A stretch of 64,000 bases of DNA from Candidatus Enteromonas sp. (GTDB lineage Bacteria > Bacillota_I > Bacilli_A > RFN20 > CAG-826): contig JAXDTZ010000014.1 of NCBI GenBank assembly GCA_034089705.1, forward strand, positions 28,819-92,818. The letters run 5' to 3'. The notes below the pieces were generated by a model. The model was not told the DNA's origin and did no database searches. It saw only the letters and a list, made by a program, of their open reading frames with translations. This document shows positions 10,384-64,000 of the stretch, piece after piece (positions within the stretch are counted from its first letter, which is position 1; each line of letters starts with the position of its first letter). Position numbers and translations under genes: made by a program.

Positions 10384-10488
10384 TATTATACATTAGTCTT
10401 TGACTAATAACAGCACCATCCCTCTCCTTTTTCTTTCTTTTTTCTAACAAGGCGGATAACATCAATAGCAACGGCTTCATTTCCCATT

Positions 10489-11553: not shown

Positions 11554-11597
11554 AAGAAAAGAAAATGGCAACCAAATGGCTGCCATTTTTTGTTGAA

Positions 11598-13829
11598 TTA
11601 TCGCTTCCCGTTGCGACGGTCATTTCCGCGGGGGTGGGAGGTAAACTTCCCTCCGCGACGATCGTTGCTGTTATGGGGGCGGGATTCGCGTTCCGGGCGT
11701 TCGACGTAGCCTTCGGGCTTCTCCTCGAATTCGCGGTGCGAGACTTTGACCTTGCCTTTTTCGTCAAGTCCGATGACGACGACTTTGAGCTTGTCTCCGA
11801 CGGAAACGAGGTCGCTGGCGTTATCCACGTAATCCCATTTGAGGCGGGAAACGTGGCAGAGGCCGTCGCAATCTCCGAAGAGGTTGACGAAGCATCCGTA
11901 ATCTTCCACGCGGGTGACGGTTCCTTCGAAGATCTCCCCGACATGGGCTTCGCGGGTGATTTCGTCGATCATGGCTTTCGCCTTCTCGATCATCTTGCGG
12001 TCGCTGTGGTAAATGGTGATGGTTCCATCTTCTTCCACGTCGATCGCGGCGCCGCCGCATTCGCGGACCATGCCTTGGATGGTTTCTCCGCCTTTGCCGA
12101 TGACATCGCGGATCTTATCGGTCGGAATCTTGAAGGTGACCATCTTCGGAGCGTATTCCGAAACTTCCTTGCGGGGTTCAGGAATGGCTTTGGCGATGGC
12201 GGCGCGGATTTCCGCACGGGCGCGCTTGGCTTGCTCGAGGGCTTCAGAGAGGACTTCGCGGGTGACGCCGTGGATCTTGATGTCCATTTGAAGGGCGGTG
12301 AGGCCTTTCGCGGTGCCGGCACATTTGAAGTCCATGTCGCCGAAGTGGTCTTCTAAGCCTTGGATATCGGTGAGGATGGTGTAGGGGTGATTGCCATCAA
12401 AGGGGCCCGAGGAGATGAGGCCCATGGCGATGCCGGAAACGATGCCCTTGATGGGGACGCCCGCCGCCATGAGGGACATGCAGTTGGCGCAGATGGAGGC
12501 TTGGGAAGAGGAACCGTTGGATTCGACGACGTCGGCGACGCAGCGGATCGTGTAGGGGAATTCCTCTTCGCTCGGAAGGACGTAGCTAAGGGCGCGCTCG
12601 CCGAGTTTCCCGTGTCCGATTTCGCGGCGGCCGGGGCTTCCCATGCGTCCGATTTCGCCCACCGAATAAGGCGGGAAATTGTAATGGTGCATGAAGCGGC
12701 GCTCTTCTTCGCTCGTGAGGTTGTCGATGAGTTGCTTGTCGGCGAGAGGCCCAAGGGTGGTCGTTCCGATGACTTGGGTTTGGCCGCGGGTGAACATGGC
12801 GGAACCATGGGCGCGGGGAAGGAGGTCGACTTGGCAATCCAGCGGGCGGATTTCGTCGACTTTGCGTCCGTCGGGGCGGATCTTTTCTTCCGTGATGAGG
12901 CGGCGGACTTCAGCGGCGACCATGCCTTCGAGGATGTCGAAGACCATGAGCATCGACATCTTGTGGTCGTGTTCGTCTTCGTATTCGCGGTGGTCGTAAT
13001 CGTCGATGATTTCCTTCTTCAAAGCGTCGACCGCGTCTTGGCGTTCGAGTTTATCGACGATGGAAATGGCCTTCTTGAGGCGTTCTCCAATGCGGGATTC
13101 GATGTCGGCTTTGATGACGGGATCGGCGGAATAGAGTTGGATTTCGCGCTTGGGCTTGCCGATTTCGGCGATGATGGTCTTTTGCCAGGCGCAGAGTTTC
13201 TTGATGGCTTCGAAGCCGAACATGATGGCGTCGAGCATCTCTTCTTCCGGGACTTCCGCGGCGCCGGCTTCGACCATCATGATGGCCTCTTCGGTACCGG
13301 CGACGGCGAGGTCGATGTCGGAAACCTTCTTTTGCTCTTCGGTCGGATCGATGATGAGTTGCCCATCGACGCGTCCGACGTAGACTCCAGCCACCGGCCC
13401 GTCAAAGGGGATGTCGGAGATGCAGAGGGCCAAGGAGGCGCCGAGCATGCCGGTCATTTCCGGGGTGTTGTCGCGGTCGCAGGACATGACCGTGGCGACG
13501 ATTTGGACTTCGTTGCGGAAGCCATCGGCGAACAAGGGGCGAATCGGCCGGTCAATCAAACGGGCTGAAAGGGTCGCGTGTTCTCCAGGGCGGCCTTCGC
13601 GGCGGAGGAAGGATCCGGGGATTTTGCCAACGGCGTAGGATTTTTCTTCGTAGTTGACGGTAAGGGGGAAGAAGTCCCCTTCTTTGGGTTCATCGGCGCA
13701 GCAGGCGGTGGCTAGGACCACGGTGTCGCCGAAACGCACGAAAACAGAACCGTCGGCCTGTTTCGCGATTTCGCCGGTTTCGACGGAAAGCTTCCGTCCG
13801 GCGAATTCGGTTTCAAAAACTTTTTTCAT
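11598..13829 (-). CDS. pnp: polyribonucleotide nucleotidyltransferase (PNPase)
   Basis: 743 aa; two RNase PH domains, KH and S1 domains; unusual basic C-terminal tail (RESRPHNSNDRRGGKFTSHPRGNDRRNGKR). Confidence 0.95.
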   Translation of the reverse strand: MKKVFETEFAGRKLSVETGEIAKQADGSVFVRFGDTVVLATACCADEPKEGDFFPLTVNYEEKSYAVGKIPGSFLRREGRPGEHATLSARLIDRPIRPLFADGFRNEVQIVATVMSCDRDNTPEMTGMLGASLALCISDIPFDGPVAGVYVGRVDGQLIIDPTEEQKKVSDIDLAVAGTEEAIMMVEAGAAEVPEEEMLDAIMFGFEAIKKLCAWQKTIIAEIGKPKREIQLYSADPVIKADIESRIGERLKKAISIVDKLERQDAVDALKKEIIDDYDHREYEDEHDHKMSMLMVFDILEGMVAAEVRRLITEEKIRPDGRKVDEIRPLDCQVDLLPRAHGSAMFTRGQTQVIGTTTLGPLADKQLIDNLTSEEERRFMHHYNFPPYSVGEIGRMGSPGRREIGHGKLGERALSYVLPSEEEFPYTIRCVADVVESNGSSSQASICANCMSLMAAGVPIKGIVSGIAMGLISSGPFDGNHPYTILTDIQGLEDHFGDMDFKCAGTAKGLTALQMDIKIHGVTREVLSEALEQAKRARAEIRAAIAKAIPEPRKEVSEYAPKMVTFKIPTDKIRDVIGKGGETIQGMVRECGGAAIDVEEDGTITIYHSDRKMIEKAKAMIDEITREAHVGEIFEGTVTRVEDYGCFVNLFGDCDGLCHVSRLKWDYVDNASDLVSVGDKLKVVVIGLDEKGKVKVSHREFEEKPEGYVERPERESRPHNSNDRRGGKFTSHPRGNDRRNGKR

Positions 13830-18153: not shown

Positions 18154-19284
18154 ATGCGAAGCATTCGAAAAGTTTTGGCGGCCCTTCGAAAAGCGGATGA
18201 ACTCTTCTCCTTGATCGACGAGAAGGACCGCATCGCCTTGGGCATCTCGGGAGGAAAGGATTCCTTGGCCTTGCTTTTGGCCATGAGCCTCTATTCCAAA
18301 TTCTCCAAGAAGGATTTCACCATCGTCCCCATCACCCTCGATTTGGGGTTCGACGGGTTCGACGCGGATCCTCTTTTGGAATATTGCCAAAGCCTCGGCA
18401 TCTCCCTGCACGTGGAAAACTGCCAGGAGGTCTATCCGATTTTGAAGGCCAACACGAAGCCGGGGGGCCATATCCCTTGCTCCATCTGCTCCCGGATGAA
18501 AAAAGCCGCGATCAACGAAGCGGCGAAGAAATACGGTTGCAACAAAGTGGCCTTCGCCCATCACAAGGACGACGCGATCGAAACCCTGTTCATGAACATG
18601 ATCCACGGGGGTAGGGTCGCGACCTTCGAACCCAAGATGCACCTTGACCGCGCGGGGATCACCTTCATTCGTCCCTTGGTTTTGGCGGAAGAGAAGGATC
18701 TTGCCTCCCTTGCGAAAGAAGAATCTCTCCCGGTGGTCAAAAAAACCTGCCCCGCGGACGGGTTCACCGAACGGGAATGGACGAAACAGCTGCTGGCTTC
18801 GATTTACCAAAGCCGACCCGAAGCGGTCGCGAACTTGTCCAAAGCCTTATACAATTACCAGGATTTCGGCCTCTATTTTTCCCATATCGAAACCAAGGAA
18901 AACGACGGGAGCCCCTATTCTTTGAAACCTTGTTTGTCCGCCAACGACGCCTTGGATTACGAACATTTCGCCCAGAAAAACGGGTTAAAAGGGCTCGTCC
19001 CGGGCTGCGTCCACGTTTTGCTCTTGAAGGCTCACCGCCTCATGGGGGCGATTTCCTATTCTTCCCCTCGCCACCACGAGATCGAAATCGTAGCCTGCGA
19101 CGCGATCGACAAGAACGACCTGAAGGAATTCCTCCTTCGGTTCGAAACTTCCCTCGCCAAAAAAGAAAACCCCTTGGACATCCAATTCCTCGGATACAAG
19201 AACAAGGGGGTTTTCGAGCGCTTGGGGTACCAAAAATTCTCGCGGAACGGCAAGAACGCTTATCGGAAGAAAATCATTCGCTGA
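18154..19284 (+). CDS. TtcA-like PP-loop ATPase (tRNA 2-thiocytidine synthetase family) with C-terminal extension
   Basis: 376 aa; SGGKDS PP-loop, CSICS and CPADG cysteine pairs in N-terminal ~240 aa; ~130-aa C-terminal region of unknown fold. Confidence 0.7.
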   Translation: MRSIRKVLAALRKADELFSLIDEKDRIALGISGGKDSLALLLAMSLYSKFSKKDFTIVPITLDLGFDGFDADPLLEYCQSLGISLHVENCQEVYPILKANTKPGGHIPCSICSRMKKAAINEAAKKYGCNKVAFAHHKDDAIETLFMNMIHGGRVATFEPKMHLDRAGITFIRPLVLAEEKDLASLAKEESLPVVKKTCPADGFTEREWTKQLLASIYQSRPEAVANLSKALYNYQDFGLYFSHIETKENDGSPYSLKPCLSANDALDYEHFAQKNGLKGLVPGCVHVLLLKAHRLMGAISYSSPRHHEIEIVACDAIDKNDLKEFLLRFETSLAKKENPLDIQFLGYKNKGVFERLGYQKFSRNGKNAYRKKIIR

Positions 19285-19723
19285 GGAAAGCGAGGGCGTG
19301 CGACGCCGCTTCCTTGGGTTTGCTGGAGATTTCGCGGTATACGAGGATTCCTTCCTCGTTGATGATAAAGGTGCTGCGGAGGACGCCGGGCTTAAAAACG
19401 CCAAGGGTTTTCTTTTCCCCATACGCCCCGAGGTAACGGATGAGTTCCTTCTCCGTGTCCAAAAGAAGGGAGAAGGGCAAGGCGTATTTGTCCTTAAACC
19501 GGAGGTGGGACGCCTTGGAAGAAGGGCTGACTCCATAAACTTCGTAGCCGAGTTTTTTGAATTCCTCGTAATGGGCGGCGAAATCTTGGGCTTCGATTGT
19601 GCACCCGGGGGTTAAATCCGCGGGATAAACGTAAATGACGGATTTGCGAAAAGACGCGACCTCCCGTTCGGCTTGGTTTTTCACACTCGGGAACTCAAAA
19701 CGATCACCAATCGAAATTGACAT
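19274..19723 (-). CDS. bcp: thioredoxin-dependent thiol peroxidase (Bcp/PrxQ-type peroxiredoxin)
   Basis: 149 aa; AhpC/TSA fold with peroxidatic Cys context VYPADLTPGCTIEAQDF; convergent 11-nt overlap with the TtcA-like gene. Confidence 0.8.
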   Translation of the reverse strand: MSISIGDRFEFPSVKNQAEREVASFRKSVIYVYPADLTPGCTIEAQDFAAHYEEFKKLGYEVYGVSPSSKASHLRFKDKYALPFSLLLDTEKELIRYLGAYGEKKTLGVFKPGVLRSTFIINEEGILVYREISSKPKEAASHALAFLSE

Positions 19724-20504
19724 GTTTTTTCTCCTTTTCTGGTTCTTCTTTCAGTATAAAGACCCAATGGGAATTTGTCGAAGAAAACGGATCGTAAACT
19801 AGTCCACTAGGAGTGAGGGAAAGGATTTCTTCTTTGGTTTGCGCCTGCCTTAGAGCGATCTCCCTCGCCATGGCTCCGCGGCATTGCTTGGAAAAGACGG
19901 AGGAAGAAACCCGTTTACCGCCCTTTTCAAGGAAAAAAGAAACGTCGATCACTTCGCTGGGGTCGAGGTATTTCCGGAGGGGCTCGAAGTATTCTTGGCT
20001 CGCGAGGTTGAGGTAAGGTCCGGGGGCATCGATTAGCGTTGCGATTTTCTCTCCAAAATAACGGGCTAAGGATTGGCCCTCCACCTTGTAAGGGTCTCCA
20101 TAATCCAGGCGATAAAAAGGGATGCCATCCATCGGGAGCAATAACCCATAAGCAGCGGAGAAGATCCGGAGGTGCTCTTGGAGGAAAGACAGGCTAACTT
20201 GGGGCAATGTTTCGGGGCTTAAGGAAACGTAGGCCACCCCGTCGTAACGGAAAATCGCGGGGCATAAACCAGGGTTTTGGAACCGCGACACGACGGAGGA
20301 AGCGATGGCGTCCGAGCAACGATAAAACCGTTTCGCCTCGGGCACGTCCATGGCGCGAAGTTTGGCCAAAATGGCGTTCCCTTCTTTTAGTAGCGCCGGG
20401 AGAGAAGAGTAGGGGAAGGAAGATTCCTTCATGGATTTGGCGGGGGATAAAAATAGCAGCATAATTGTGAAAAACCCAGGACCGAAAGGCCCTGGGGGAG
20501 TCAT
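19704..20504 (-). CDS. yaaA: peroxide stress protein YaaA (DUF328/UPF0246)
   Basis: contains the YaaA N-terminal signature MLLFLSPAKSM after a 14-aa extension; ATGA overlap with the rbfA stop supports the 20504 start (alternative ATG 20462). Confidence 0.78.
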   Translation of the reverse strand: MTPPGPFGPGFFTIMLLFLSPAKSMKESSFPYSSLPALLKEGNAILAKLRAMDVPEAKRFYRCSDAIASSVVSRFQNPGLCPAIFRYDGVAYVSLSPETLPQVSLSFLQEHLRIFSAAYGLLLPMDGIPFYRLDYGDPYKVEGQSLARYFGEKIATLIDAPGPYLNLASQEYFEPLRKYLDPSEVIDVSFFLEKGGKRVSSSVFSKQCRGAMAREIALRQAQTKEEILSLTPSGLVYDPFSSTNSHWVFILKEEPEKEKKHVNFDW

Positions 20505-53990: not shown

Positions 53991-54027
53991 CAAAAGACGA
54001 ATCCCCATTCGGAATTCGTCTTTTTTG
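53991..54027. terminator. bidirectional rho-independent terminator between the lipoprotein array (+) and the Hpt gene (-)
   Basis: CAAAAGACGAAU-(11-nt loop)-AUUCGUCUUUUUUG. Confidence 0.7.
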
Positions 54028-54067: not shown

Positions 54068-54415
54068 TCAATCGAGTTGCTCGATCGCCCGTTCGGTTCT
54101 TTGGAATTCTTCGACCAATGCCCGATAGGCATCTTGGTAACCTACTAAAACCCGAGGACGGAGGATTTCGGTGAGCTCGATCGCTTTTTTCGAGAGTTCG
54201 TCCAGGTGGAGGTTGAGCGACACGCCTTTTAGGGTATGCGCGGCGCGGAAGGCGGTTTCGGGGTCGCTTTCGGCAATGCCTTTGGCGAGGTTTTTCATCG
54301 ATTCGTCCTTCTGGAGCATCTTTAAGAGGCGGGCGATCACCGCGTCGCTGCGGACGGCGGAGAAAATCGCGTTGTAGTCTCCGTGGAGTTCTTCGTAAAC
54401 TTGTTTCGGCGTCAT
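54068..54415 (-). CDS. stand-alone histidine phosphotransfer (Hpt) domain protein
   Basis: 115 aa; four-helix Hpt with AAHTLKGVSLNL phospho-His motif; ATGA overlap with the upstream response regulator. Confidence 0.8.
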   Translation of the reverse strand: MTPKQVYEELHGDYNAIFSAVRSDAVIARLLKMLQKDESMKNLAKGIAESDPETAFRAAHTLKGVSLNLHLDELSKKAIELTEILRPRVLVGYQDAYRALVEEFQRTERAIEQLD

Positions 54416-56808
54416 GCTTCTTCTCCTTCGTCGATGATGTGGAAGGTCCCTTTGCTTTCCTTGGCGAGGTAGAGGGCGGAGTCGGCTTTTTCGAATAGCT
54501 CGGCGACTCTTCCTCTCCCACGGACGGCTCCCGCGGAGGCCTTCAAGGCGAGCCCTTGGACGGACTCGGCGCGGATATGGGACAAGATGGATTCGAGTTT
54601 GGTTTCTAGGACGCGTCGCGGCATGTCCTCGAATAAGAGGAGGAATTCATCCCCGCCATACCGGATGATCTCGTCTTCCGCGCGAACGCAGGAGCGGATC
54701 GCGTCCACGACTTTTTTGAGGGCTTCGTCCCCGGCTTCGTGGCCGTAAGTGTCGTTGATTCTTTTGAAGTCGTCCATGTCGAGGATGGCAAGGCAATAAT
54801 TTCCGATCCGGTCCTTGGCTTTTTCGTCGTAAAACCGGCGGGTTTTGCATCCTAGCGTAGAATCGCGGTATAAGGCATAGGAAAGCGCGGCGACCGAATA
54901 GAGGCCTTCGTCTTCCTTAGAGAAGGAAGCGACGGAATCTTCGTCGATCCGCGAAATCATTTCCAGGGTGTAGGGCGCATTGAGGATCGTCAAAGGACGG
55001 GAAACCACGAAATAGAGTTCCCGGGCGTGGAGACGGAAGGCGCGGGTGGTTTTCTTGGGAATGAGCACGGGCTTGCCTTTGATGGCTTGATCATCCCAGA
55101 AGGGGGTGAAATCCATCGTGGCGAGGAATTTCCCTTCTTCGAGGCGGTACTCCTTCTTGAGTTCGTAGGAAATCAAACGGACCAAATCGAAGTTCTGTTG
55201 TTCCGCGTGGAGAAGGCTTTCGGCCTGCTCGAGGCTCAGATTCTCTTCGTCGAGAAGAGTTGGGGAATCGATGCGGGAAGAACGGGAAGAGAGTTCGTCG
55301 AAAGCGTGGACGATTTCGGAAGCGTCGGCGATTCTGCCGATGGCGAGGTAGGCCGAGCGGCGTTCGGAGAAAATGGCTTCCCCGATGACGTGGAACCATT
55401 TTTCCCCATGGGAGAAATGCAAGAGGAGATCAAATTCGAAGGAGGGCTCTTCCGGGGTCGTTTGCTGAATCGCTTTTTCCACGGTTCGGGCGGCTTCTTG
55501 GTTGCGGGAACCGAAAACCGAAGAGACCGAGAAGGGGTCGTTGATGGTCAAGGGGAAGCCGAACTTCTTTTGGGAAGCGCGGTTGAAGGTGATGGTTTGG
55601 TGGTCTCCGAGTTCGAACCGGAACCACGCTTCGTCGGTGAGGTTCGCGAATCGGTCGCGGAGTTGGCGTTCTTGCAAAAGCAAGGAGGCATCCCGTTCGT
55701 CGCTTACGGAAGCATCCGAAGACCAAGCGGAAGCGTCTTCCTCTCCGGAAGCGTCGAGTTGAGCGATGATTTCGGGAATCTTGTCCTGAATGGCTTCGAA
55801 GCATTGGAGCAAGAAGGGGGAGAATGCCCCGCATTCCCCGTTTTTGATCATGGCGATGGCTTCTTCGTGAGAGAAGGCGCGCTTATAGCAACGGACGCTG
55901 GTGAGGGCGTCGTATACATCGGCGAGGCCCACGATTTGGGCCCAAACGGGAATGGCGTCGCCTTTCAGGCCGTCGGGATATCCCCTTCCGTCGTAGCGTT
56001 CGTGGTGATGGAGGCAGATATCGTGGGCGAAACGGACCAATTTCTCGTTTTGGAAGGCCCCGAGGCTTTCGAGGAGCTCCGCGCCTTTGCGGGAATGGGT
56101 CTTTATGATTTCGAATTCCTCTTGGGTCAGACGGCCCGGCTTATTGAGGATCTCTTCGGGGATGGAAATCTTCCCGATGTCGTGGAGGGAAGAAGCCATC
56201 TTGATCAAGGGGATGTCCCCACGAGAAAAGGGATATGCTTGGGTGGATTGGAGGACTTGCTCGCAAAGGAGCTCGGTCAAAGCGTTGATGTGCAAGACGT
56301 GGAGCCCGCTTTCGGCGTTGCGGAATTCGACGATGTGGGAAAGGATCGCGATCATGAGTTCGTTGTCCTTTTTCCTCGCGGCGAGTTGGGCGTTCACTTC
56401 CTCCATGAGAGCTTTTTGCTTGGCGAAGAGGAGAATGGTGTTTTGGATGCGGCGGAGAACGATTTCGCGTTCATAGGTGGAACGGGGGATGTAATCCACC
56501 GCCCCGAGGTCATAGGCCCGTTTCATGGTTTCGCTGCCGGTTTCGGCGGAAATCATGATGACGGGGGTTTCTTCGATATAGCCTCTCTCCCTCATGAGGC
56601 GCAGGACTTCTAGGCCGTCGCATCTTGGCATGATGATGTCGAGCAAGATGACCGAGATTTCCTCTTTGTGGGCTTCGTAGACTTCCAGGGCCTCTTGGCC
56701 GTCTTTCGCCTCAAGCACCCCAAAACCGCCTTCGAGCATGGTCGAAAGAATGACGCGATTGATTTCTTCGTCGTCTACGATTAACACGGTTTTTCGATTG
56801 CTGGCCAT
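54412..56808 (-). CDS. response regulator with REC, HD-GYP phosphodiesterase and GGDEF diguanylate cyclase domains
   Basis: 798 aa; REC (VLIVDDEEINR…LLDIIMPRCDG), HD-GYP (HDIGKI…HHERYDGRGYPDGL), intervening sensor-like region, GGDEF (RYGGDEFLLLF). Confidence 0.85.
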   Translation of the reverse strand: MASNRKTVLIVDDEEINRVILSTMLEGGFGVLEAKDGQEALEVYEAHKEEISVILLDIIMPRCDGLEVLRLMRERGYIEETPVIMISAETGSETMKRAYDLGAVDYIPRSTYEREIVLRRIQNTILLFAKQKALMEEVNAQLAARKKDNELMIAILSHIVEFRNAESGLHVLHINALTELLCEQVLQSTQAYPFSRGDIPLIKMASSLHDIGKISIPEEILNKPGRLTQEEFEIIKTHSRKGAELLESLGAFQNEKLVRFAHDICLHHHERYDGRGYPDGLKGDAIPVWAQIVGLADVYDALTSVRCYKRAFSHEEAIAMIKNGECGAFSPFLLQCFEAIQDKIPEIIAQLDASGEEDASAWSSDASVSDERDASLLLQERQLRDRFANLTDEAWFRFELGDHQTITFNRASQKKFGFPLTINDPFSVSSVFGSRNQEAARTVEKAIQQTTPEEPSFEFDLLLHFSHGEKWFHVIGEAIFSERRSAYLAIGRIADASEIVHAFDELSSRSSRIDSPTLLDEENLSLEQAESLLHAEQQNFDLVRLISYELKKEYRLEEGKFLATMDFTPFWDDQAIKGKPVLIPKKTTRAFRLHARELYFVVSRPLTILNAPYTLEMISRIDEDSVASFSKEDEGLYSVAALSYALYRDSTLGCKTRRFYDEKAKDRIGNYCLAILDMDDFKRINDTYGHEAGDEALKKVVDAIRSCVRAEDEIIRYGGDEFLLLFEDMPRRVLETKLESILSHIRAESVQGLALKASAGAVRGRGRVAELFEKADSALYLAKESKGTFHIIDEGEEA

Positions 56809-56897
56809 TGTCTTCCCCTAACCTTTGCTAATGATACAACAATTCATGGGAAAACCCCAATTTTCGGTGTCATATCCCTCGCAGTCTCCCGAAAGTG

Positions 56898-56906
56898 TGC
56901 TATATT
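56898..56906 (+). promoter_or_regulatory. extended -10 promoter element (TGcTATATT) upstream of rubredoxin
   Basis: TGCTATATT 33 nt upstream of ATG 56939; AAAGGAA RBS 7 nt before the ATG. Confidence 0.4.
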
Positions 56907-56938
56907 TACTTTGTGGCAATGCCAGAAAGGAATCGACC

Positions 56939-57097
56939 ATGAAATACGTTTGCCCGATGTGCGGTTGGGAATACGACGAGGAAGCCGGGGCTCCGGAATA
57001 CGGAATCGCCCCCGGAACCAAGTTCGAAGACCTTCCCGAAGACTTCTCCTGTCCCCTTTGCGGGGCGCCGAAAGATTCGTTCGGAGCCGCCGAATAA
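56939..57097 (+). CDS. rub: rubredoxin
   Basis: 52 aa [14 protein letters not shown]…[11 protein letters not shown] with two CxxCG knuckles. Confidence 0.9.
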
Positions 57098-57103
57098 GGA
57101 AAC

Positions 57104-57128
57104 GGACCCCGGAAGGGGTCCTTTTCTT
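57104..57128. terminator. bidirectional rho-independent terminator between rubredoxin (+) and tcdA (-)
   Basis: GGACCCC-GGAA-GGGGUCC followed by UUUUCUU; A-rich on the opposite side. Confidence 0.8.
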
Positions 57129-57143
57129 ATGTTCGATTCATTA

Positions 57144-57845
57144 CTATTTCATTAATTTTTGAATGGCGTACGTGGCCAGCAAGATGCCCGCGGAAGCCGG
57201 GGCGAAGGGATTGGAAGCCGGGGTGCGGGGGTTATTGTCCACGGGATGGACCGGGGTGAGGGGCGGTTCTTCGGAATAAACGACCGGATAGAAAGGGAGG
57301 TTCCTTTCCTTGGAGAGTTTCCGCATCACCTTGGCGAGGGGATCCCCTTTCGTGGAATAGATGTCCCCCACCACAAAACGTTCGGGATGCTCTTTGTTCC
57401 CGGCCCCCATGCAGGAAATGATGGGGACGCGGTGTTCCAAACAGGTTTGGATGAGCAACAATTTGCTGGATACCGAATCGATCGCGTCGAGGACGAAATC
57501 GAAGGAAGAGAAATCGAATTCCCCGATGGTGTCTTCCGAAAAGAAGAGGGAATAAGGATGGACGATCGTTTCGGGGAAGATATCTAGGACTCTTTGACGG
57601 GCCACTTCGGCTTTCTTGCAAGACAAGGTCTTCCGCGTAGCGAGGATTTGGCGGTTTAAGTTGCTTGGCTCGAAAGAGTCAGCGTCCACCAAGGTCAATT
57701 CCCCGATTCCAGCGCGGGCGAGGATTTCCAGGGCATATCCCCCGACTCCCCCTAGGCCGAAAAGGGCCACGTGGGCGGAACTCAGTTTCTGCAACGCCTC
57801 TTCCCCGTACAAAGCGAGGGTTCTTTCCTTCCCTAGCGATTCCAT
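57144..57845 (-). CDS. tcdA: ThiF/MoeB-family tRNA threonylcarbamoyladenosine dehydratase (TcdA/CsdL-like)
   Basis: GLGGVGGYALEILARAGIG Rossmann motif; start at M24 (ATG 57845) with GGAGG RBS; first codons overlap the end of the upstream gene. Confidence 0.78.
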   Translation of the reverse strand: MESLGKERTLALYGEEALQKLSSAHVALFGLGGVGGYALEILARAGIGELTLVDADSFEPSNLNRQILATRKTLSCKKAEVARQRVLDIFPETIVHPYSLFFSEDTIGEFDFSSFDFVLDAIDSVSSKLLLIQTCLEHRVPIISCMGAGNKEHPERFVVGDIYSTKGDPLAKVMRKLSKERNLPFYPVVYSEEPPLTPVHPVDNNPRTPASNPFAPASAGILLATYAIQKLMK

Positions 57846-60673
57846 GGTTCCTCCAAGAAGAGGAGAGCGCAAAGGCCGACGGCTTTGCTGGAGAGTAGCC
57901 TCCCGGAAGCGCAAAAGGCCTTCATTTCTCCGGATTTGGATTTTAAAGAAAGGTCAAACGCGTCGAATTCTTCCGTTTTCCCTTCCGGGACCTCCTTCTT
58001 TTGGAGGCGCGAAAGAATCTCTTTCCCTTGTTCTGGGCAAAGGGAGAGGAAGTCTTCGTTGCGTTGGAGGAAATCGGATTCCCCTTCAAATCCAAGAGCG
58101 GTCCAAAGGTATTCGTTGGAATAGATGATCGATCCATCCCCTAGAGCGGAGAAATAGAGGATTCCTCCGGGGATGTTGGAAAGGAAATCCGCGCGTTCGT
58201 AGACCGAAGATACGTCGCGGAACAAAGCGAAATAAACCTCGGATTCCCCTTCGTTTTTGAGGTAATGGGTTTCCACGTTCAACACGATGGGCTTTTTCGG
58301 GGTTTGGAAGCGGATGGCGGCGGATCTCCCATTCTGGAAGAAGAGAGAAGCGAACTGCTCGCGGTCTTCTTCGCTGCAGCCGATTTTCGAGAAATCCCCA
58401 ATCGAAGGATCCCCTTCGTTCCAATCAAGGGAAAGGAGGCGCACGAAGGTGAGATTGGCGCTGGTTAGGCGGACTTCCCCTTCCCGTTTTTCGAAGAAGG
58501 CGATGGGGCCAACGAGGGAAGCCACCGCTTCGTCGGGATAATCGACGTCGATGAGGATTCTCGCCACGTCGCTTCGGCGGAGGCGGTGGAAGGGCAATTC
58601 AAACAGAGCGTTTTTCCTCGGTTCGTAGGCTTCCATCAAGGCCTCGAATTCGTTTTCGGGCAAAGGGAGGGAGAAATAGAACCCTTGGATAACGTCGCAC
58701 CCGCTGCCGCGGAGGAAGAGGAATTGTTCGCGGGTTTCCACCCCTTCGGCGATGACCGTCATCCCCAAATCCTGAGCCAAATCCATGACGTGGGTCAACG
58801 TGATTTCCGCGCGGGGGTTTCCGATCAAATCGATGAGGGATTTGTCGATTTTGATCACGTCGAAATGGAGGATGTCCATGGAGTAGAGCGAAGAATACCC
58901 GGCTCCGAAATCGTCCATGTCGAGGACGAATCCTTTTTGGTAGAGGGCATCCGCAAAATCCTTGACGTCTCGAGAAGAGATGGCCGCGGTTTCGGTGATT
59001 TCCAAGGGGACGAGGTTCAGCGGGACCCCATATTCTTTGGCGATTTGGCTATAGACTTCCGCGACGGGAAATTGGAACAAGGTGTTTCGCGACAGATTGA
59101 CCGAGATGGGAAAGAGTTTTCTCCCCAAGGCGATGTTCTTGGCTTGGAAAGCGCAGACGGCGGAGAAGACATAACGATCCATCGCGATGATTCGTTCGTC
59201 GCGTTCGAATACCTTGATGAATTCGGTCGGGGAGAGGATTTCCCCGTTCTTGATCCAGCGAACCAAGGCTTCCGCGCCAAAGAGTTCTCCTGTTTTGGCG
59301 GTGTATTTCGGTTGGTAATACAAAACGAATTCTCGGTTTTCGATGCCGGATTCGAAATCCTCTTGGAATTTGAGTTCGCGAAACAGATCGTCTTGCATCG
59401 TCGGGGAATACACCGCGGCGGCAATGGGGGTTTTCCCGTTCAAGGAAGAAAGGGCCAAACGCCCCCGATTGATGGCTTCGTTGAGGGAAATGCCTGCGGG
59501 GAGGCTCTTCACGATGCCGAACCGGAAATGGAGGTTCCGCAAGGGGGCGTGAAGGGTTATTCGATCTTTGGATTCTTCGATGGTTTGGAGCGAGATGCGG
59601 TCATTGGAATGGGCCAACAGGCAAATCCGATCCCCTTCGTAGCGCCCGACGAAGATGGCTCCGGGGGTGAGGTAGCAGCATTTGGCGAGGTATTGGATCA
59701 CCGCGTCTCCGCTAGAAAGGCCGTAGACGTTATTGATCGTTTTGAGATCCACGATGTCGGCGAGGATCAAATCCAACGCCTCGTCTTTGGCGGAAGAGAG
59801 ATAGTGTTCCGCTTTCGTGACGAAAGCTTGGCGGGTGAGGATTCCCGTGAGTTCGTCCCGTTCGAGGGAAGTGATCTTGTTCTCCTCTTGTTGGATCAGC
59901 ACGATATTGCGGGCGAATCGAACGATGGCCTCTTCGCTTCGGGAAGAGGGTTCGGCGCAGATGGCCCCGAAAGAAGAAAGGAGAGAAACTTGTTCTTCGG
60001 TTTGGGAATCCAAATAGCAAAGGACAGGCAGGTTATTTAGTAGCGGGCATTGGCTTTTGTGGCGGATGAAGCGATAGATGTCCTCGGTAAGGGAAGGGGC
60101 GAAGAAAAGGAAGGCGGAATATTTGTTGTGGTCTTTTTCGATTTGACGGAAGGACTCCTGGGTGAGTTCGAAGGGAGTCACTTCAAAGGATTGCTTCAAA
60201 AAAGAACTGACGGGGACGAGATGGGAGTCATAGACGAGCAGGGATTGTTCGTTTCCCCCAAAGCCGGTGAGGCGGCTGAGGGAACGCGAAAGGACGTAGG
60301 AATCTTCATAGCCGAAACCCACGATCGCCTTTTTGGAGTCGTCTCCTTTCCGGACGGCTTTGGCCTTGATGAAATGGATGCCGTCATCTTTTACAATGCG
60401 GTAATGCAGGGTGAAGGTGGGGACTTCGGAGATCAGGGCTAGGCAGTTCTTGGGATCGAACGAAGCGAGGAATTTTTCCTTGTCCCCGGGATAGACGATG
60501 CGTTCCGCGTATTCGTAAACGAAGGAAGAGAGGTCGCTTTTTTGGCCATCTTGGTGCAAGGGGCTTTGATTTCCTTTCACAAAAGTGAACGAAAGCGTCT
60601 CGAAATCGACTTCGACGACATCCTCGAAATCCAACGAGAGATAACAAGAAGGGGACATGTTCTGGGAATCCAT
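57833..60673 (-). CDS. PAS - degenerate GGDEF - EAL - PAS-PAS c-di-GMP phosphodiesterase
   Basis: ~946 aa; GGDEF motif degenerated to RYEGDRI; intact EAL signatures (AEALVRW, EITETAA, DMDDFGAGYSS, EGVETREQ, QGFYFS); PAS-like segments at both ends; track ORF starts at upstream TTG 60691. Confidence 0.85.
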   Translation of the reverse strand: MDSQNMSPSCYLSLDFEDVVEVDFETLSFTFVKGNQSPLHQDGQKSDLSSFVYEYAERIVYPGDKEKFLASFDPKNCLALISEVPTFTLHYRIVKDDGIHFIKAKAVRKGDDSKKAIVGFGYEDSYVLSRSLSRLTGFGGNEQSLLVYDSHLVPVSSFLKQSFEVTPFELTQESFRQIEKDHNKYSAFLFFAPSLTEDIYRFIRHKSQCPLLNNLPVLCYLDSQTEEQVSLLSSFGAICAEPSSRSEEAIVRFARNIVLIQQEENKITSLERDELTGILTRQAFVTKAEHYLSSAKDEALDLILADIVDLKTINNVYGLSSGDAVIQYLAKCCYLTPGAIFVGRYEGDRICLLAHSNDRISLQTIEESKDRITLHAPLRNLHFRFGIVKSLPAGISLNEAINRGRLALSSLNGKTPIAAAVYSPTMQDDLFRELKFQEDFESGIENREFVLYYQPKYTAKTGELFGAEALVRWIKNGEILSPTEFIKVFERDERIIAMDRYVFSAVCAFQAKNIALGRKLFPISVNLSRNTLFQFPVAEVYSQIAKEYGVPLNLVPLEITETAAISSRDVKDFADALYQKGFVLDMDDFGAGYSSLYSMDILHFDVIKIDKSLIDLIGNPRAEITLTHVMDLAQDLGMTVIAEGVETREQFLFLRGSGCDVIQGFYFSLPLPENEFEALMEAYEPRKNALFELPFHRLRRSDVARILIDVDYPDEAVASLVGPIAFFEKREGEVRLTSANLTFVRLLSLDWNEGDPSIGDFSKIGCSEEDREQFASLFFQNGRSAAIRFQTPKKPIVLNVETHYLKNEGESEVYFALFRDVSSVYERADFLSNIPGGILYFSALGDGSIIYSNEYLWTALGFEGESDFLQRNEDFLSLCPEQGKEILSRLQKKEVPEGKTEEFDAFDLSLKSKSGEMKAFCASGRLLSSKAVGLCALLFLEEPWNR

Positions 60674-60705
60674 AGCACAAGAAAAATCCAACGATAAAAG
60701 TATAC

Positions 60706-61862: not shown

Positions 61863-62792
61863 CTAGTTGCTTAAGCGATATGTACCAAATTTGAAAACTT
61901 TATCTTCCACATTCGTTTGGCTTTCGCCATGATGGTACAGTCCATCGATGACTATTGCCCCATCCGTTAATTCAAAATTGCCTCGTAGATAAAAAACTGG
62001 CGGGTAATCGCTAGAAAACGTCATATCGTATTTGTCGCGGTCTTCGCGCCTTATGTGCTCATAGGGGTCATGGTCAATATAAAGATATATTGTCTTTTTA
62101 TCAGCGGAAGTCCAGTAGACTCCTTCCACCACTTCATCTCCGTTTTTATATTGAAATAAAGCGTGAATATAGGGTTTCGGTATGACGCATGTCATAGATA
62201 CATTTTCATCTAATGAATATGTTCCTTCCGGGATCTGATATTGTTTTGCGTATTTGTAATTATCTTGATCCCGTTTATGTTCTTTGCCTTCTAGAACATA
62301 GGTTCCCAGTTTATAGGGGAGCTCGCTGATTCTATATACATGCGTATAGATTCTCCCATCATTCATGCCTTCGTATCTTTCTTCTTTGATGGTCGTAAAT
62401 TGGGTGAAATCGGTCTCGAAATCATCTACATAGGTATAAAGCCAGTCTTTCTTTTCCGCGCCGTCTCTAGATAAAACAAAATTGACCGTAAAAGTATTTG
62501 CGCCATCATTTGGGTCATAAACGACTCGATAATGGCCTTCATATTTATCTTGACCATCTTCCACATATTTAAATGACATGGCGTCTTTGCTTCCGTCAAA
62601 TTCAAAGAAAGTATCCGATTGATCTTTCAATATCCATTTGCCGGTTGATGAATCAAGCTCTTCATCGTATTCGATGGTGCTATCGCTTTGATTTGCAGTT
62701 CCGTTAAATAAGCCGCATGCGGTTAATGAAAAGCTAGTCAAAAGGCAAAAAGCAGAAGAGAGAATAGTTACTACCTTATTACGCACAATCAA
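61863..62792 (-). CDS. lipoprotein (309 aa) encoded in a low-GC segment
   Basis: signal peptide with lipobox SLTACG; AT-rich codon usage unlike the rest of the window; no linker or module shared with the main lipoprotein array. Confidence 0.7.
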   Translation of the reverse strand: MIVRNKVVTILSSAFCLLTSFSLTACGLFNGTANQSDSTIEYDEELDSSTGKWILKDQSDTFFEFDGSKDAMSFKYVEDGQDKYEGHYRVVYDPNDGANTFTVNFVLSRDGAEKKDWLYTYVDDFETDFTQFTTIKEERYEGMNDGRIYTHVYRISELPYKLGTYVLEGKEHKRDQDNYKYAKQYQIPEGTYSLDENVSMTCVIPKPYIHALFQYKNGDEVVEGVYWTSADKKTIYLYIDHDPYEHIRREDRDKYDMTFSSDYPPVFYLRGNFELTDGAIVIDGLYHHGESQTNVEDKVFKFGTYRLSN

Positions 62793-63091
62793 AGCCTCCT
62801 TCTTTTGGCTTTCATTTTAAATTTTCAATGCCGTTTTTACTACTCTTATTCCATGAGTGTCTTTGTCTTCCGACGCAGCGGACGCGTGGAAAGGAATCGA
62901 GCCAATGGCAATCCCTCTTTTTTTCGGCCGTATGCGCTAAAAAAAGAAAAGTCGTGGCTTTGGGCGGAATAAGCCCCTGATTTCCGTATCAAGGGCTAGA
63001 TTCTAAAATTGTTTGTAAATAACAATATAAAATAGATAGGCTAAATGCCCTAGGTGTAACAACAAATTTGATCCACTGGTGGAAGATAAGA

Positions 63092-63520
63092 TTAAATTAG
63101 GGTTAATAAATAGCCCAGTATTGGTCCAATGAATATTGCGATATAGATTAGAGTGATCCATGGTTGATATTCAACGTAGAATTGCTTGAATGTCAAACTC
63201 CACGGATGCTTGATAATCACCCAGCCAAAAACATCGAATACAATACAAATCGAAACCCATATTGCTCCAGTAATGAATGCTTCTGCTATTGTTGGATTGG
63301 ATAATCCGTTCATGTAGATGAATCCAAACACTGTGAAAATGACAATATTGTACAAAGGATGCCATGGTTTGGTTTTCTCATATCCTTCTCCCATGGACTC
63401 TTTATCCATTGGTTTCATATGGAGAACGTAAATATTGAATATTGTATGAAGCATTCCAATTAATGTGACAATGATATAGGCAATCCAAAACCATAGCATT
63501 GAGAGTCCGAAATCTTGCAT
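63092..63520 (-). CDS. small integral membrane protein (142 aa, 4 TM), low-GC
   Basis: GGGAGG RBS 9 nt upstream of ATG 63520; four hydrophobic helices. Confidence 0.6.
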   Translation of the reverse strand: MQDFGLSMLWFWIAYIIVTLIGMLHTIFNIYVLHMKPMDKESMGEGYEKTKPWHPLYNIVIFTVFGFIYMNGLSNPTIAEAFITGAIWVSICIVFDVFGWVIIKHPWSLTFKQFYVEYQPWITLIYIAIFIGPILGYLLTLI

Positions 63521-63561
63521 TATTTACAACCTCCCGATAGCCATTTTATTTACCCAGTGTT

Positions 63562-63894
63562 TTATAGTCCCGTCATTTTCCAAGATGCGAATATATTTTT
63601 GAATTGAAGTTTATTTAAGCCTAGAATTGCGATTAACTCCATAGTCGTAATATTAGGATTATTTCTCATTTCCGATACAATTCTATTCATATTTAATCGC
63701 GACTTGTTCACTTTTTGCTCACTTTCTTGCTCGCTTTCTTGCTCGCTTTTGGATGTTTTGCGAGCAACAACACGATTATATTTTATCGAAACTTTTATAT
63801 AATCGGGTCCAAAATAGAAAGCGTCTTTGCCATAAGCGTCAACAATTAGACTTGACCGTCTCGGAATGGCATTCCGAAAAGTACCGGAAACCAA
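63562..63894 (-). CDS. hypothetical protein with C-terminal winged-helix/HTH-like segment and internal SEQE repeat
   Basis: 110-aa ORF; C-terminal NPNITTMELIAILGLNKLQ resembles a wHTH recognition region; start codon uncertain. Confidence 0.45.
   Translation of the reverse strand: MVSGTFRNAIPRRSSLIVDAYGKDAFYFGPDYIKVSIKYNRVVARKTSKSEQESEQESEQKVNKSRLNMNRIVSEMRNNPNITTMELIAILGLNKLQFKNIFASWKMTGL
63715..63750 (-). repeat. three tandem copies of a 12-nt unit (TTGCTCRCTTTY) inside the 63562..63894 ORF
   Basis: ttgctcactttc / ttgctcgctttc / ttgctcgctttt on the + strand; encodes SEQESEQESEQK in-frame. Confidence 0.6.
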
Positions 63895-64000
63895 CGGTTT
63901 ATTGTTTTTTGAAAAAATTAATCATTGCTCTTTAATGCTGCATATTCCTCTTCCAAACTTAAAACAAAGGACTCATTAGGGTAAAGATGTAAATCAAAAT

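Follow-up and report, generated by a model that had tools for sequence, protein, structure and literature searches.

In the RpfC/RpfG system of Xanthomonas, which acts in DSF signalling, RpfC is a hybrid kinase to which an Hpt domain is fused. Phosphate passes from this hybrid kinase via the Hpt domain in a four-step His-Asp-His-Asp relay, and the locus described here would share that relay. RpfG and its family begin with a receiver at the N-terminus and continue with a complete HD-GYP domain, as does the regulator of this locus, and their phosphodiesterase activity depends on phosphorylation of the receiver (bioRxiv 10.1101/2021.11.05.467447). The same pairing of HD-GYP with GGDEF is known from the HD-GYP/GGDEF hybrids, which often contain PAS domains and for which both activities are predicted (Seshasayee et al. 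2010, PMC2952852). According to the parts of this census drawn on here, 74 of 1034 HD-GYP proteins belong to the hybrid class, and nearly all hybrids retain both active sites. Those parts treat the class as a whole, and describe neither a receiver-first subfamily, nor an operon with Hpt and hybrid kinase, nor a receiver with Arg.

Similar make-and-break logic, with a balance set by sensors, is reported for bifunctional GGDEF-EAL enzymes, for example CdgB of Azospirillum, DcpA of Agrobacterium, and MSDGC-1 of Mycobacterium (PMC12943098). PleD and WspR likewise have a GGDEF domain with an RxxD inhibitory site (I-site) under two-component control. In the HptB branch of the Pseudomonas Gac/Rsm-biofilm network, a stand-alone Hpt also passes hybrid-kinase phosphate to a c-di-GMP/biofilm regulator; the output there is HsbR, a receiver protein with a PP2C/anti-sigma-antagonist module and without HD-GYP or GGDEF.

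The locus reported here lies in the window, the whole 64,000-nucleotide stretch of Candidatus Enteromonas sp. DNA that was analysed. In contrast to RpfC/RpfG, the Hpt is a separate 115-aa protein whose gene follows that of the regulator and is not fused to a kinase; the regulator has an additional PAS-PAS-GGDEF tail and an Arg for the receiver Lys, and no kinase is encoded at the locus. The degrading domain is HD-GYP and not the EAL of the GGDEF-EAL enzymes, and GMP, not pGpG, is the expected product. Whereas the receiver of PleD and WspR drives GGDEF dimerisation directly, here an HD-GYP and two PAS domains intervene. We consider it likely that the regulator-Hpt operon is a bidirectional c-di-GMP switch in a hybrid-kinase phosphorelay, and that the adjoining genes are separate units.

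Layout of the locus

The five genes of the region were found where the preliminary description had placed them, and are long open reading frames with strong domain matches, not chance ones. The features are as follows.

53992..54024, minus strand: intrinsic-terminator-like hairpin at the end of the regulator-Hpt operon, 14-bp stem, then a U run
54068..54415, minus strand: stand-alone Hpt, 115 aa, Pfam Hpt (PF01627) match of 35.3 bits (cut-off 24.6), phospho-His in AAHTLKGV
54412..56808, minus strand: response regulator, 798 aa, REC / HD-GYP / PAS / PAS / GGDEF (translation, Pfam, AlphaFold)
54439..54876, minus strand: GGDEF, aa about 645-790, with D677, N685, D694, R716, GGDEF 718-722, K783, and I-site R709-x-x-D712
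54925..55233, minus strand: PAS-like domain 2, aa about 526-628 (AlphaFold and Foldseek; no Pfam match)
55318..55656, minus strand: PAS domain 1, aa about 385-497 (AlphaFold and Foldseek; no Pfam match)
55774..56361, minus strand: HD-GYP, aa about 150-345, with E166, H170, H209, D210, H238, H268, H269, D297, and motif HHERYDGRGYP
56449..56796, minus strand: receiver (REC), aa 5-120, with D12, D13, D57, and S87 present and Arg109 at the canonical Lys position
56939..57097, plus strand: rubredoxin, 52 aa, CPMC and CPLC, monocistronic, Pfam PF00301 80.1 bits
57104..57121, no single strand: bidirectional terminator-like hairpin GGACCCC/GGGGTCC, separating the convergent rubredoxin and tcdA genes
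57144..57848, minus strand: ThiF-family protein, TcdA-like (tRNA ct6A37 synthase), Pfam ThiF 139.6 bits
57833..60673, minus strand: degenerate GGDEF-EAL protein, 946 aa (Pfam); the open reading frame extends back to a TTG at 60691

From strands, overlaps, and terminator hairpins, the region can be divided into three transcription units. The regulator and Hpt genes form a two-gene operon on the minus strand, with the regulator first. The ATGA coupling proposed earlier is present, the Hpt start codon overlapping the regulator stop (GAA GCA TGA / ATG ACG), and the hairpin at the end of the operon has an RNA fold of -19.6 kcal/mol (z -5.3). The tcdA and GGDEF-EAL genes share their own operon, separate from the regulator and Hpt; the tcdA start is preceded by a GGAGG ribosome-binding site and lies within a 16-nt overlap with the GGDEF-EAL gene upstream of it. 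The rubredoxin gene is transcribed from the opposite strand, with its own (shared bidirectional) terminator, and diverges from the regulator gene across a 130-bp intergenic region. Rubredoxin and TcdA do lie between the two c-di-GMP genes, as previously noted; that rubredoxin is divergent and on the plus strand had not been stated.

Domains of the regulator

At 100% identity, the regulator matches the NCBI entry MDY2913817.1, titled 'MAG: diguanylate cyclase [Candidatus Enteromonas sp.]'. Pfam matches cover Response_reg (aa 8-116), HD_5/HD (170-323), and GGDEF (670-786), and the mean pLDDT of the AlphaFold model is 78. No curated family name applies, as every NCBIfam equivalog falls below its cut-off: the best match, the PleD family, scores 134.6 bits, far below its cut-off of 474, and 127 bits are reached with the NosR-family receiver/HD-GYP model, whose cut-off is 400. 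As it combines the HD-GYP motif with a GGDEF domain, the regulator falls within the definition of the HD-GYP/GGDEF hybrid class. It departs from the two-domain RpfG plan in that HD-GYP is not C-terminal and is followed by PAS-PAS-GGDEF. It is a known type of protein, belonging to a signalling module common in gut bacteria.

Both catalytic domains had been described as intact, and alignment bears this out, with none of their catalytic residues missing. Across a 34-sequence alignment, the catalytic residues of REC, HD-GYP, and GGDEF are invariant with the exception of D12/D13, H269, and F722, which are conserved at 90% or more. The HD-GYP residues were assigned by alignment to PmGH (4MCW) and PA4781 (4R8Z). 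All eight PmGH-type metal ligands are present, the regulator residues aligning in order with PmGH E185, H189, H221, D222, H250, H276, H277, and D305; among them only H269 varies. The HD and HHExxDGxGYP motifs are found in 83/83 genome relatives. The domain is predicted to be of the trinuclear, Glu-containing type, and because the third-metal Glu is present, c-di-GMP is expected to be taken to GMP rather than to pGpG.

The Mg/GTP residues of the GGDEF domain match the equivalents of PleD D327, N335, D344, R366, and K442, and in the 34-sequence alignment only F722 is not invariant. The RxxD I-site, five residues before GGDEF, reads RAEDEIIRYGGDEF; R709 and D712 are invariant in the same alignment, and the site is kept in 58 of the 63 GGDEF-bearing genome relatives. 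The guanine-specificity position is occupied by Asp, which points to c-di-GMP rather than cGAMP as the product. Taken together, the regulator is probably able both to make and to break c-di-GMP. The N-terminal GGDEF motif reads DSTLGCKTRR in the window, compared to the canonical D-x-L-T-G-x-Y-N-R-R of distant homologues, and the Pfam GGDEF match begins at profile position 32/161.

HD-GYP is separated from GGDEF by two PAS domains, which had been overlooked previously. In the AlphaFold model of aa 372-668, pLDDT is 83-90 over PAS domain 1, and Foldseek searches of the PDB with the modelled middle region returned tandem-PAS proteins (LOV-PAS, FixL, DosP) at E 4.5e-9 to 1e-6. The PAS 2 domain is also found N-terminally in stand-alone GGDEF proteins of about 280 aa. 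A C-x9-C-x2-C motif of distant homologues is absent from PAS 2 of the window and its close relatives in the 34-sequence alignment. Because this Cys motif is lost and the N-terminal GGDEF motif is degenerate in the window and close relatives, the cyclase half may be weaker or less tightly regulated than in distant homologues. Redox or flavin sensing by the PAS domains, which would offer a link to rubredoxin, was considered and rejected: PAS 1 lacks the LOV-type NCRFL, the Cys motif is missing, and sequence inspection of both PAS domains revealed no flavin-binding or haem-binding motif.

In the receiver, the substitution of Lys by Arg had likewise escaped notice. By hmmalign tally, Arg occupies the canonical Lys site in 95 of 96 family receivers, while Lys occupies it in all 87 hybrid-kinase receivers from the same loci. 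All 96 family receivers retain D57 and D12/D13; at position 87, 92 of them have Ser and 4 have Thr. The T+1 residue after Ser87 in the receiver of the window is Ala. Under a strict definition, such a receiver is formally a 'pseudo-receiver', and K-to-R is the commonest substitution in pseudo-receivers defined computationally; substitutions of this Lys need not abolish phosphorylation (PMC12632262). Phosphorylation of the Arg109 receiver is plausible.

The predicted phosphorelay in relatives and the neighbouring genes

A survey of 83 related regulator genes in 80 species genomes indicates the usual setting of the regulator. The regulators of relatives are REC-HD-GYP-PAS, with or without a further PAS and with or without GGDEF, the last being present in 63/83. 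An Hpt gene is adjacent and on the same strand in 65/83 (59 downstream), and the H[TSA]xK[GS] motif, as H-T/S-L-K-G, is conserved in all 66 adjacent Hpt proteins. For at least 39/83 regulators, a lower bound since many contigs end nearby, a hybrid kinase is encoded on the same strand within 1.2 kb. The typical operon consists of regulator, Hpt, and a hybrid kinase with one or two receiver domains; at one locus (L007), the regulator, two hybrid kinases, and Hpt form one same-strand cluster. In another Candidatus Enteromonas species (L004), whose regulator is about 52% identical, the hybrid kinase directly follows Hpt. Judged from gene content, the regulator-Hpt pair is the local version of a phosphorelay cassette widespread in gut Firmicutes, and the earlier proposal of a distant hybrid kinase as the source of the phosphate passed on by Hpt is well supported by these operons, including the congeneric one.

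No histidine kinase is encoded in the window, in agreement with the preliminary description: no HisKA/HATPase domain was detected in Pfam scans of every non-overlapping open reading frame of about 105 aa or more, or with a custom kinase-core HMM against all those of 60 aa or more. To detect a remnant or pseudogene of a kinase after Hpt, the hybrid kinase of the congeneric species was used as a tblastn query; in the window and in the loci L001 and L013 it gave nothing below E=1.9. A protein database search for a relocated orthologue of this kinase returned orthologues of 94% and 79% identity, none of them evidently from the species of the window; its other matches were at most 42% identical over about half of the query (the kinase core). 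The kinase partner in this species may therefore have been lost rather than moved. Comparison with the 76%-identical relative, where no kinase is adjacent either, gave dN/dS values of 0.14 (regulator) and 0.18 (Hpt), which are rough because dS is saturated. They suggest that both genes are under purifying selection even without an adjacent kinase, and for this reason Hpt probably receives its phosphate from a kinase encoded at another place in the genome.

The neighbouring genes show a narrower distribution. The order GGDEF-EAL / ThiF / rubredoxin / regulator / Hpt is held in three more contigs at 76% regulator identity and, at 52%, in L004. Beside the regulators of four more distant metagenome homologues with called neighbours, no rubredoxin, ThiF, or GGDEF-EAL gene was found. 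Rubredoxin reaches 76.3 bits against the NCBIfam RubredRD cut-off of 90, and the best NCBIfam match of the ThiF-family protein is TcdA, at 135.8 bits against a cut-off of 304. As previously described, the 946-aa protein has a degenerate GGDEF (aa 278-377, RYEGDRI for RxGGDEF) and an EAL domain (aa 444-676, 180 bits). RYEGD(R/H) is conserved in its orthologues. Compared to MorA (4RNH), the EALVRW, N in SVNLS, EITE, DDFGAGYSS, KIDKS, EGVE, and QG residues are all kept, and the protein is a predicted c-di-GMP phosphodiesterase. Of the three PAS-like segments reported in it, only two weak matches were recovered: PAS_9 at aa 851-921 (E 1.7e-4, below gathering) and a PAS-like profile match at the N-terminus (hhalign probability 36%). 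Candidate c-di-GMP riboswitches upstream of neighbouring surface-protein genes were sought in Rfam; none reached the gathering score, and only four weak, unrelated matches appeared at E<=1.

The region had been presented as a compact functional cluster in which a redox protein is linked to a c-di-GMP regulator in an unusual arrangement. That reading is unsupported, because rubredoxin is on the opposite strand, the genes form three units, the neighbours are limited to Enteromonas relatives, and the HD-GYP/GGDEF architecture is common and was catalogued already in 2010 (PMC2952852). From gene content, rubredoxin, tcdA, and the GGDEF-EAL gene appear to be neighbours in Enteromonas relatives only, with no mechanistic tie to the module.

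Alternative readings, proposed mechanism and significance

The conserved gene order and the intergenic region from which rubredoxin and the regulator diverge could be taken to mean that all 6.6 kb make up one functional c-di-GMP island, in which the degenerate GGDEF-EAL phosphodiesterase, the regulator, and Hpt cooperate and rubredoxin gives redox input. We regard this as very improbable. Terminator hairpins split the block into three units, the four distant homologues lack these neighbours, the PAS domains have neither a flavin-binding or haem-binding motif nor the Cys motif, and such synteny is expected anyway in a single genus whose genomes are small (about 1.2 Mb). Slightly less credence still is given to a true pseudo-receiver that is never phosphorylated, with Hpt binding it or serving as a phosphate sink and not as phosphodonor. 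The near-universal Arg, the prevalence of this change among such receivers, and the lack of a kinase in the window would fit that reading. The phospho-Asp, acidic pair, and Ser/Thr are, however, kept in all 96 family receivers tallied, with Ala after Ser87 in the window, and the His motif is kept in every adjacent Hpt; the regulator occurs in operons with Hpt and hybrid kinases across many genera, and replacement of the Lys is not necessarily fatal to phosphorylation (PMC12632262).

A regulator that is effectively monofunctional has a somewhat better claim, although it too is unlikely. One catalytic domain would be active and the other a nucleotide-binding allosteric module, as is the case in many GGDEF-EAL hybrids; GGDEF could, for example, sense GTP or c-di-GMP on behalf of the HD-GYP phosphodiesterase. 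One activity usually predominates in hybrids (PMC12943098), 20/83 family members lack GGDEF, the conserved core being REC-HD-GYP-PAS, and in the window a degenerate DxLTGxxNRR is combined with an upstream sensor without its Cys residues. Set against this, the GGDEF motif, Mg/GTP ligands, and I-site are conserved across the 34 aligned sequences, and GG[DE]EF is present in 62/63 GGDEF-bearing genome relatives, as expected of a working cyclase and not of a mere binding module; the PAS2-GGDEF unit also occurs as stand-alone cyclase-type proteins.

In the bidirectional switch that we favour, a hybrid kinase would autophosphorylate and pass phosphate to its own receiver, then to the His of Hpt, and finally to the regulator at Asp57. 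If RpfG-family regulators are a guide, a phosphorylated receiver would turn on the HD-GYP phosphodiesterase, this being the activity presumed to be favoured. The GGDEF cyclase, with intact active and product-inhibition sites, would be gated by the tandem PAS domains through dimerisation, and the balance of making and breaking would be set by the phosphorelay plus whatever the PAS domains sense. In the species of the window, where the kinase gene is no longer beside Hpt, a remote kinase would supply the phosphate.

PGAP names the protein 'diguanylate cyclase'; a better description is an HD-GYP phosphodiesterase under receiver control, fused to a cyclase that is gated by PAS domains, and partnered with Hpt. 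Whether K-to-R 'pseudo-receivers' work in phosphorelays is a current question in the two-component field; in dozens of genera the Arg receiver occurs in tight association with Hpt and hybrid kinases, which is natural evidence that such receivers can serve in working ones. Candidatus Enteromonas is a predicted peptidoglycan-less, reduced-genome relative of mycoplasmas, and its c-di-GMP turnover genes are not mentioned in the two RFN20/Tenericutes genomics papers searched. The overall picture of c-di-GMP signalling is changed neither by the Arg receivers nor by c-di-GMP genes in Enteromonas.

A bolder and rather doubtful proposal is that Arg-for-Lys receivers constitute a large, Hpt-dedicated, phosphorylatable class in gut Firmicutes, and that the REC(R)-HD-GYP-PAS(-PAS-GGDEF)/Hpt/hybrid-kinase cassette is an undescribed, widespread bidirectional c-di-GMP switch. 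If this were true, Candidatus Enteromonas, which is wall-less and has a genome of roughly 1.2 Mb, may possess very few c-di-GMP controllers besides this cassette, and the cassette, no longer coupled to its ancestral kinase, might control the giant surface-protein genes that adjoin it.

Gene arrangement and transcription units

Five genes lie within 54068-60691, four on the minus strand and one on the plus strand, and the genes named in the preliminary description were all confirmed at its coordinates. The features are as follows.

57833-60673, minus strand: GGDEF*-EAL gene (degenerate GGDEF plus EAL), with an ORF reaching back to a TTG at 60691; 946 aa; GGDEF reads RYEGDRI; EAL scores 180 bits
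57144-57848, minus strand: ThiF/TcdA-like gene (tcdA); 234 aa; GGAGG before the ATG; 16-nt overlap with the GGDEF*-EAL gene
57104-57121, both strands: strong hairpin GGACCCC/GGGGTCC with a T-rich tail on either strand
56939-57097, plus strand: rubredoxin gene; 52 aa; converges on the hairpin at 57104-57121
54412-56808, minus strand: regulator gene; 798 aa
54925-55233: PAS2 domain of the regulator, without a Pfam model
54068-54415, minus strand: Hpt gene; 115 aa; ATGA forms the shared regulator stop and Hpt start
Closing the regulator-Hpt operon: terminator-like hairpin, 14-bp stem followed by a U run (-19.6 kcal/mol, z -5.3)

Because the GGDEF*-EAL and TcdA-like genes overlap (57833-57848), the GGAGG ribosome-binding site of the second lies within the first, and overlaps of 4 nt and 14 nt are also seen in the homologous loci L001 and L004. 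According to the layout of strands, overlaps and hairpins, the region is therefore divided into three transcription units. One comprises GGDEF*-EAL and tcdA, another only rubredoxin, and the third the regulator and Hpt genes. The rubredoxin gene, previously placed with the others, is on the opposite (plus) strand relative to the four other genes. Additionally, it is only in Enteromonas-level relatives that the regulator has rubredoxin, ThiF and GGDEF-EAL as neighbours, and among the called neighbours of four more distant metagenome homologues none of the three was found. The view that these genes form a compact cluster, unusual for its proximity to a redox protein, is thus not supported.

Comparison of the 946-aa protein with MorA (4RNH) indicates that no EAL catalytic residue is missing, and the 3 orthologues compared all have a degenerate GGDEF; the protein is predicted to be a phosphodiesterase of ordinary type. 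Its co-transcription with a tRNA-modification enzyme (TcdA-like) is an odd pairing, for which compaction of operons in a small genome is the simplest explanation. The window yielded no c-di-GMP riboswitch.

Architecture and catalytic residues of the regulator

A database entry with 100% identity to the regulator is NCBI MDY2913817.1, "MAG: diguanylate cyclase [Candidatus Enteromonas sp.]". Pfam assigns the receiver to aa 8-116, HD_5/HD to aa 170-323 and GGDEF to aa 670-786, and about 340 residues between HD_5/HD and GGDEF have no assignment. The AlphaFold model of aa 372-668 displays two β-rich lobes (pLDDT 80-90), for which Foldseek returned tandem-PAS proteins, including Brucella LOV-PAS, FixL and DosP (E 4.5e-9 to 1e-6). 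The full-length model (mean pLDDT 78) agrees with the tandem-PAS model and shows a long helix, aa 114-163, joining the receiver to HD-GYP. The architecture is REC, HD-GYP, PAS, PAS, GGDEF.

The preliminary description had reported intact HD-GYP and GGDEF motifs, to be refuted by an alignment lacking the catalytic residues; in our alignments none is absent. Residue-level alignment with PmGH (4MCW) reveals a complete trinuclear metal site in HD-GYP, with 8/8 ligands (E166, H170, H209, D210, H238, H268, H269 and D297) and the motif HHERYDGRGYP. The Glu ligand is the mark of the HD-GYP class able to take c-di-GMP to GMP (bioRxiv 10.1101/2021.11.05.467447). The GGDEF domain retains D677, N685, D694, R716, GGDEF and K783, and an RxxD site lies exactly 5 residues upstream of GGDEF, in RAEDEIIRYGGDEF. 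At the position that governs guanine specificity the residue is Asp (D694), which makes c-di-GMP a likelier product than cGAMP. This is the position that we take to distinguish the Hypr class. Hypr enzymes are a class of GGDEF enzymes one residue substitution apart (PMC12943098).

In an alignment of 34 sequences, down to 37% identity, the HD-GYP ligands, GGDEF residues and RxxD site show either no variation or conservation of at least 90%. The N-terminal GGDEF motif DxLTGxxNRR is weaker in the window (DSTLGCKTRR) and its three closest relatives. In the same four sequences PAS2 is without C-x(about 9)-C-x2-C (CYxxW...RCENCISAK), a motif carried by all more distant homologues in the alignment and conserved in the distant homologues P0005-P0111; its Cys residues were lost in the window and close relatives. 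PAS2-type domains are also N-terminal in many stand-alone, roughly 280-aa GGDEF proteins (P0334, P0359, P0399). When a PAS-PAS profile was compared with 50%-identity clusters, 266 clusters matched at E<=1e-30, many via PAS2 alone. The Cys-bearing PAS2 has the appearance of a sensor domain, for metal or redox state, that has not been described before.

The regulator-Hpt module and its hybrid kinase

A database search gave over 100 full-length proteins, 790-840 aa in length, which share the regulator's four Pfam domains at 37-41% identity, the named full-length members being Lachnospiraceae. When a single genome from each species was scanned, at least 598 stretches encoding relatives were detected. 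The best 80 of these were taken for synteny, with genes called by domain HMMs built from our own alignments. Going by record titles, most of these 80 loci come from Lachnospiraceae, Oscillospiraceae, Christensenellaceae and other Clostridia, and a few are labelled Coriobacteriia, Erysipelotrichaceae, Fibrobacter or Treponema.

The best 80 loci contain 83 REC-HD-GYP genes, all with the HD and HHExxDGxGYP motifs. GGDEF is present in 63 of the 83, and the other 20 end after PAS1; GG[DE]EF is found in 62 and RxxD in 58 of the 63. A same-strand Hpt gene is directly adjacent to 65/83 regulators, downstream in 59, and the His motif H[TSA]xK[GS] occurs in 66/66 Hpt proteins. At least 39/83 have a same-strand hybrid kinase, made up of a kinase core and one or two receivers, no more than 1.2 kb away; this is a lower bound since many contigs end nearby. 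The typical operon order is regulator, Hpt, hybrid kinase. It can be seen that the regulator-Hpt pair is a conserved module, and these neighbourhoods support the phosphorelay proposed from the adjacent Hpt. In three loci labelled Fibrobacter (L074, L089, L091), two paralogous REC-HD-GYP-PAS genes without GGDEF lie about 4-6 kb apart; both adjoin hybrid kinases, an Hpt accompanies just one of the two, and the pattern suggests that the cassette was duplicated.

The window was reported to encode no histidine kinase, and this was borne out: scans with Pfam (non-overlapping ORFs of at least about 105 aa) and with a custom kinase-core HMM (ORFs of at least 60 aa) detected no HisKA/HATPase, further receiver or PilZ. 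L004, from another Candidatus Enteromonas species according to its protein-cluster name, encodes a regulator about 52% identical to the window's. Its gene order matches that of the window (GGDEF-EAL, ThiF, opposite-strand rubredoxin, regulator, Hpt), and a hybrid kinase directly follows Hpt at L004 positions 10355-12355 (P0150/P0151), cut by the contig end; full-length orthologues have 783 aa. This kinase is probably cytoplasmic, because its N-terminal region does not look hydrophobic. Its database search returned orthologues at 94% and 79% identity, and the remaining matches, at 42% identity or less, cover about half of the query, corresponding to the kinase core. In the window and its 76%-identical relatives L001 and L013, convergent surface-protein genes follow Hpt instead of a kinase, and tblastn detected no remnant of the L004 kinase in any of the three. 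As the kinase is present in L004 and absent from this locus in the window's species and a 76% identical relative, its loss or relocation is a recent event within the genus. For the window compared with L001, neither with an adjacent kinase, dN/dS is about 0.14 (regulator) and 0.18 (Hpt), values that are rough since dS is saturated; both genes are nonetheless under continuing constraint. Such constraint without an adjacent kinase favours a kinase encoded elsewhere in the genome of the window's species.

An atypical receiver in a reduced-genome host

In the receiver, Asp57 is present as phospho-acceptor, D12 and D13 form the acidic pair, and Ser87 is followed by Ala. The canonical Lys position (CheY K109) is occupied by Arg109, encoded at 56482-56484. 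In hmmalign tallies of L001-L092, Arg is found at this position in 95/96 receivers of REC-HD-GYP genes, and Lys is kept in 87/87 receiver domains of hybrid kinases from the same loci. Therefore, a formally "pseudo" receiver is located within an obvious Hpt/hybrid-kinase phosphorelay. Among computationally defined pseudo-receivers K-to-R is the commonest change at the conserved Lys, and changes there need not stop phosphorylation (PMC12632262).

The closest system is RpfC/RpfG, in which a REC-HD-GYP regulator is fed by a hybrid kinase; RpfC is a hybrid kinase with a fused Hpt. In characterised RpfG-family proteins, receiver phosphorylation switches on the HD-GYP phosphodiesterase (bioRxiv 10.1101/2021.11.05.467447). 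Here phosphate would pass from a hybrid kinase via Hpt His60 to Asp57 and, by analogy, activate the regulator's HD-GYP. The tandem PAS and coiled linkers would control GGDEF dimerisation, and the RxxD site would cap c-di-GMP output by product inhibition, so that one protein could push c-di-GMP up or down. The scheme builds on gene structure, domains, residues and synteny, all of which the analysis shows; which way phosphate travels, reciprocal control of the two activities and a distant kinase are what we infer.

HD-GYP/GGDEF hybrids were noted already in 1999, when the domain was defined (bioRxiv 10.1101/2021.11.05.467447). In a 2010 census they represent 74 of 1034 HD-GYP proteins, with GGDEF intact in nearly all and PAS domains often present (PMC2952852). 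No NCBIfam equivalog covers the present subfamily, and our literature search found no paper describing its Hpt/hybrid-kinase operon or Arg receiver.

Candidatus Enteromonas is GTDB genus UBA733 of order RFN20, family CAG-826. For one species described in it, Ca. E. pullicola, the genome size is about 1.2 Mb (PMC8035907), and the family as a whole is predicted to be without peptidoglycan (PMC10868615). The window's flanks carry housekeeping genes (PNPase, IF-2, TruB, RibF, BipA, FtsK, RNase J). A 20-kb plus-strand run of very large ORFs (33721-53880; 508-1188 aa), most without a Pfam match, converges on the Hpt gene. Its final genes encode BspA-type LRR and Listeria-Bacteroides-repeat surface proteins, which may be adhesins in this bacterium, itself predicted to be wall-less; the DNA upstream showed no c-di-GMP riboswitch. 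GC falls from about 0.53 to 0.37 over the last 2 kb (62001-64000), where ORFs 61863-62792, 63092-63520 and 63562-63894 have no Pfam match; this may be foreign or intergenic-rich DNA. Oxidative-stress genes (AhpC/TSA peroxiredoxin, YaaA peroxide-stress protein and rubredoxin) are dispersed at 19274-20504 and 56939-57097, consistent with an anaerobe, and none is linked to signalling genes.

The regulator belongs to a large, largely unstudied gut-Firmicute subfamily. Its chief points of interest are the Arg-substituted receiver in an obvious phosphorelay and the reduced-genome host.
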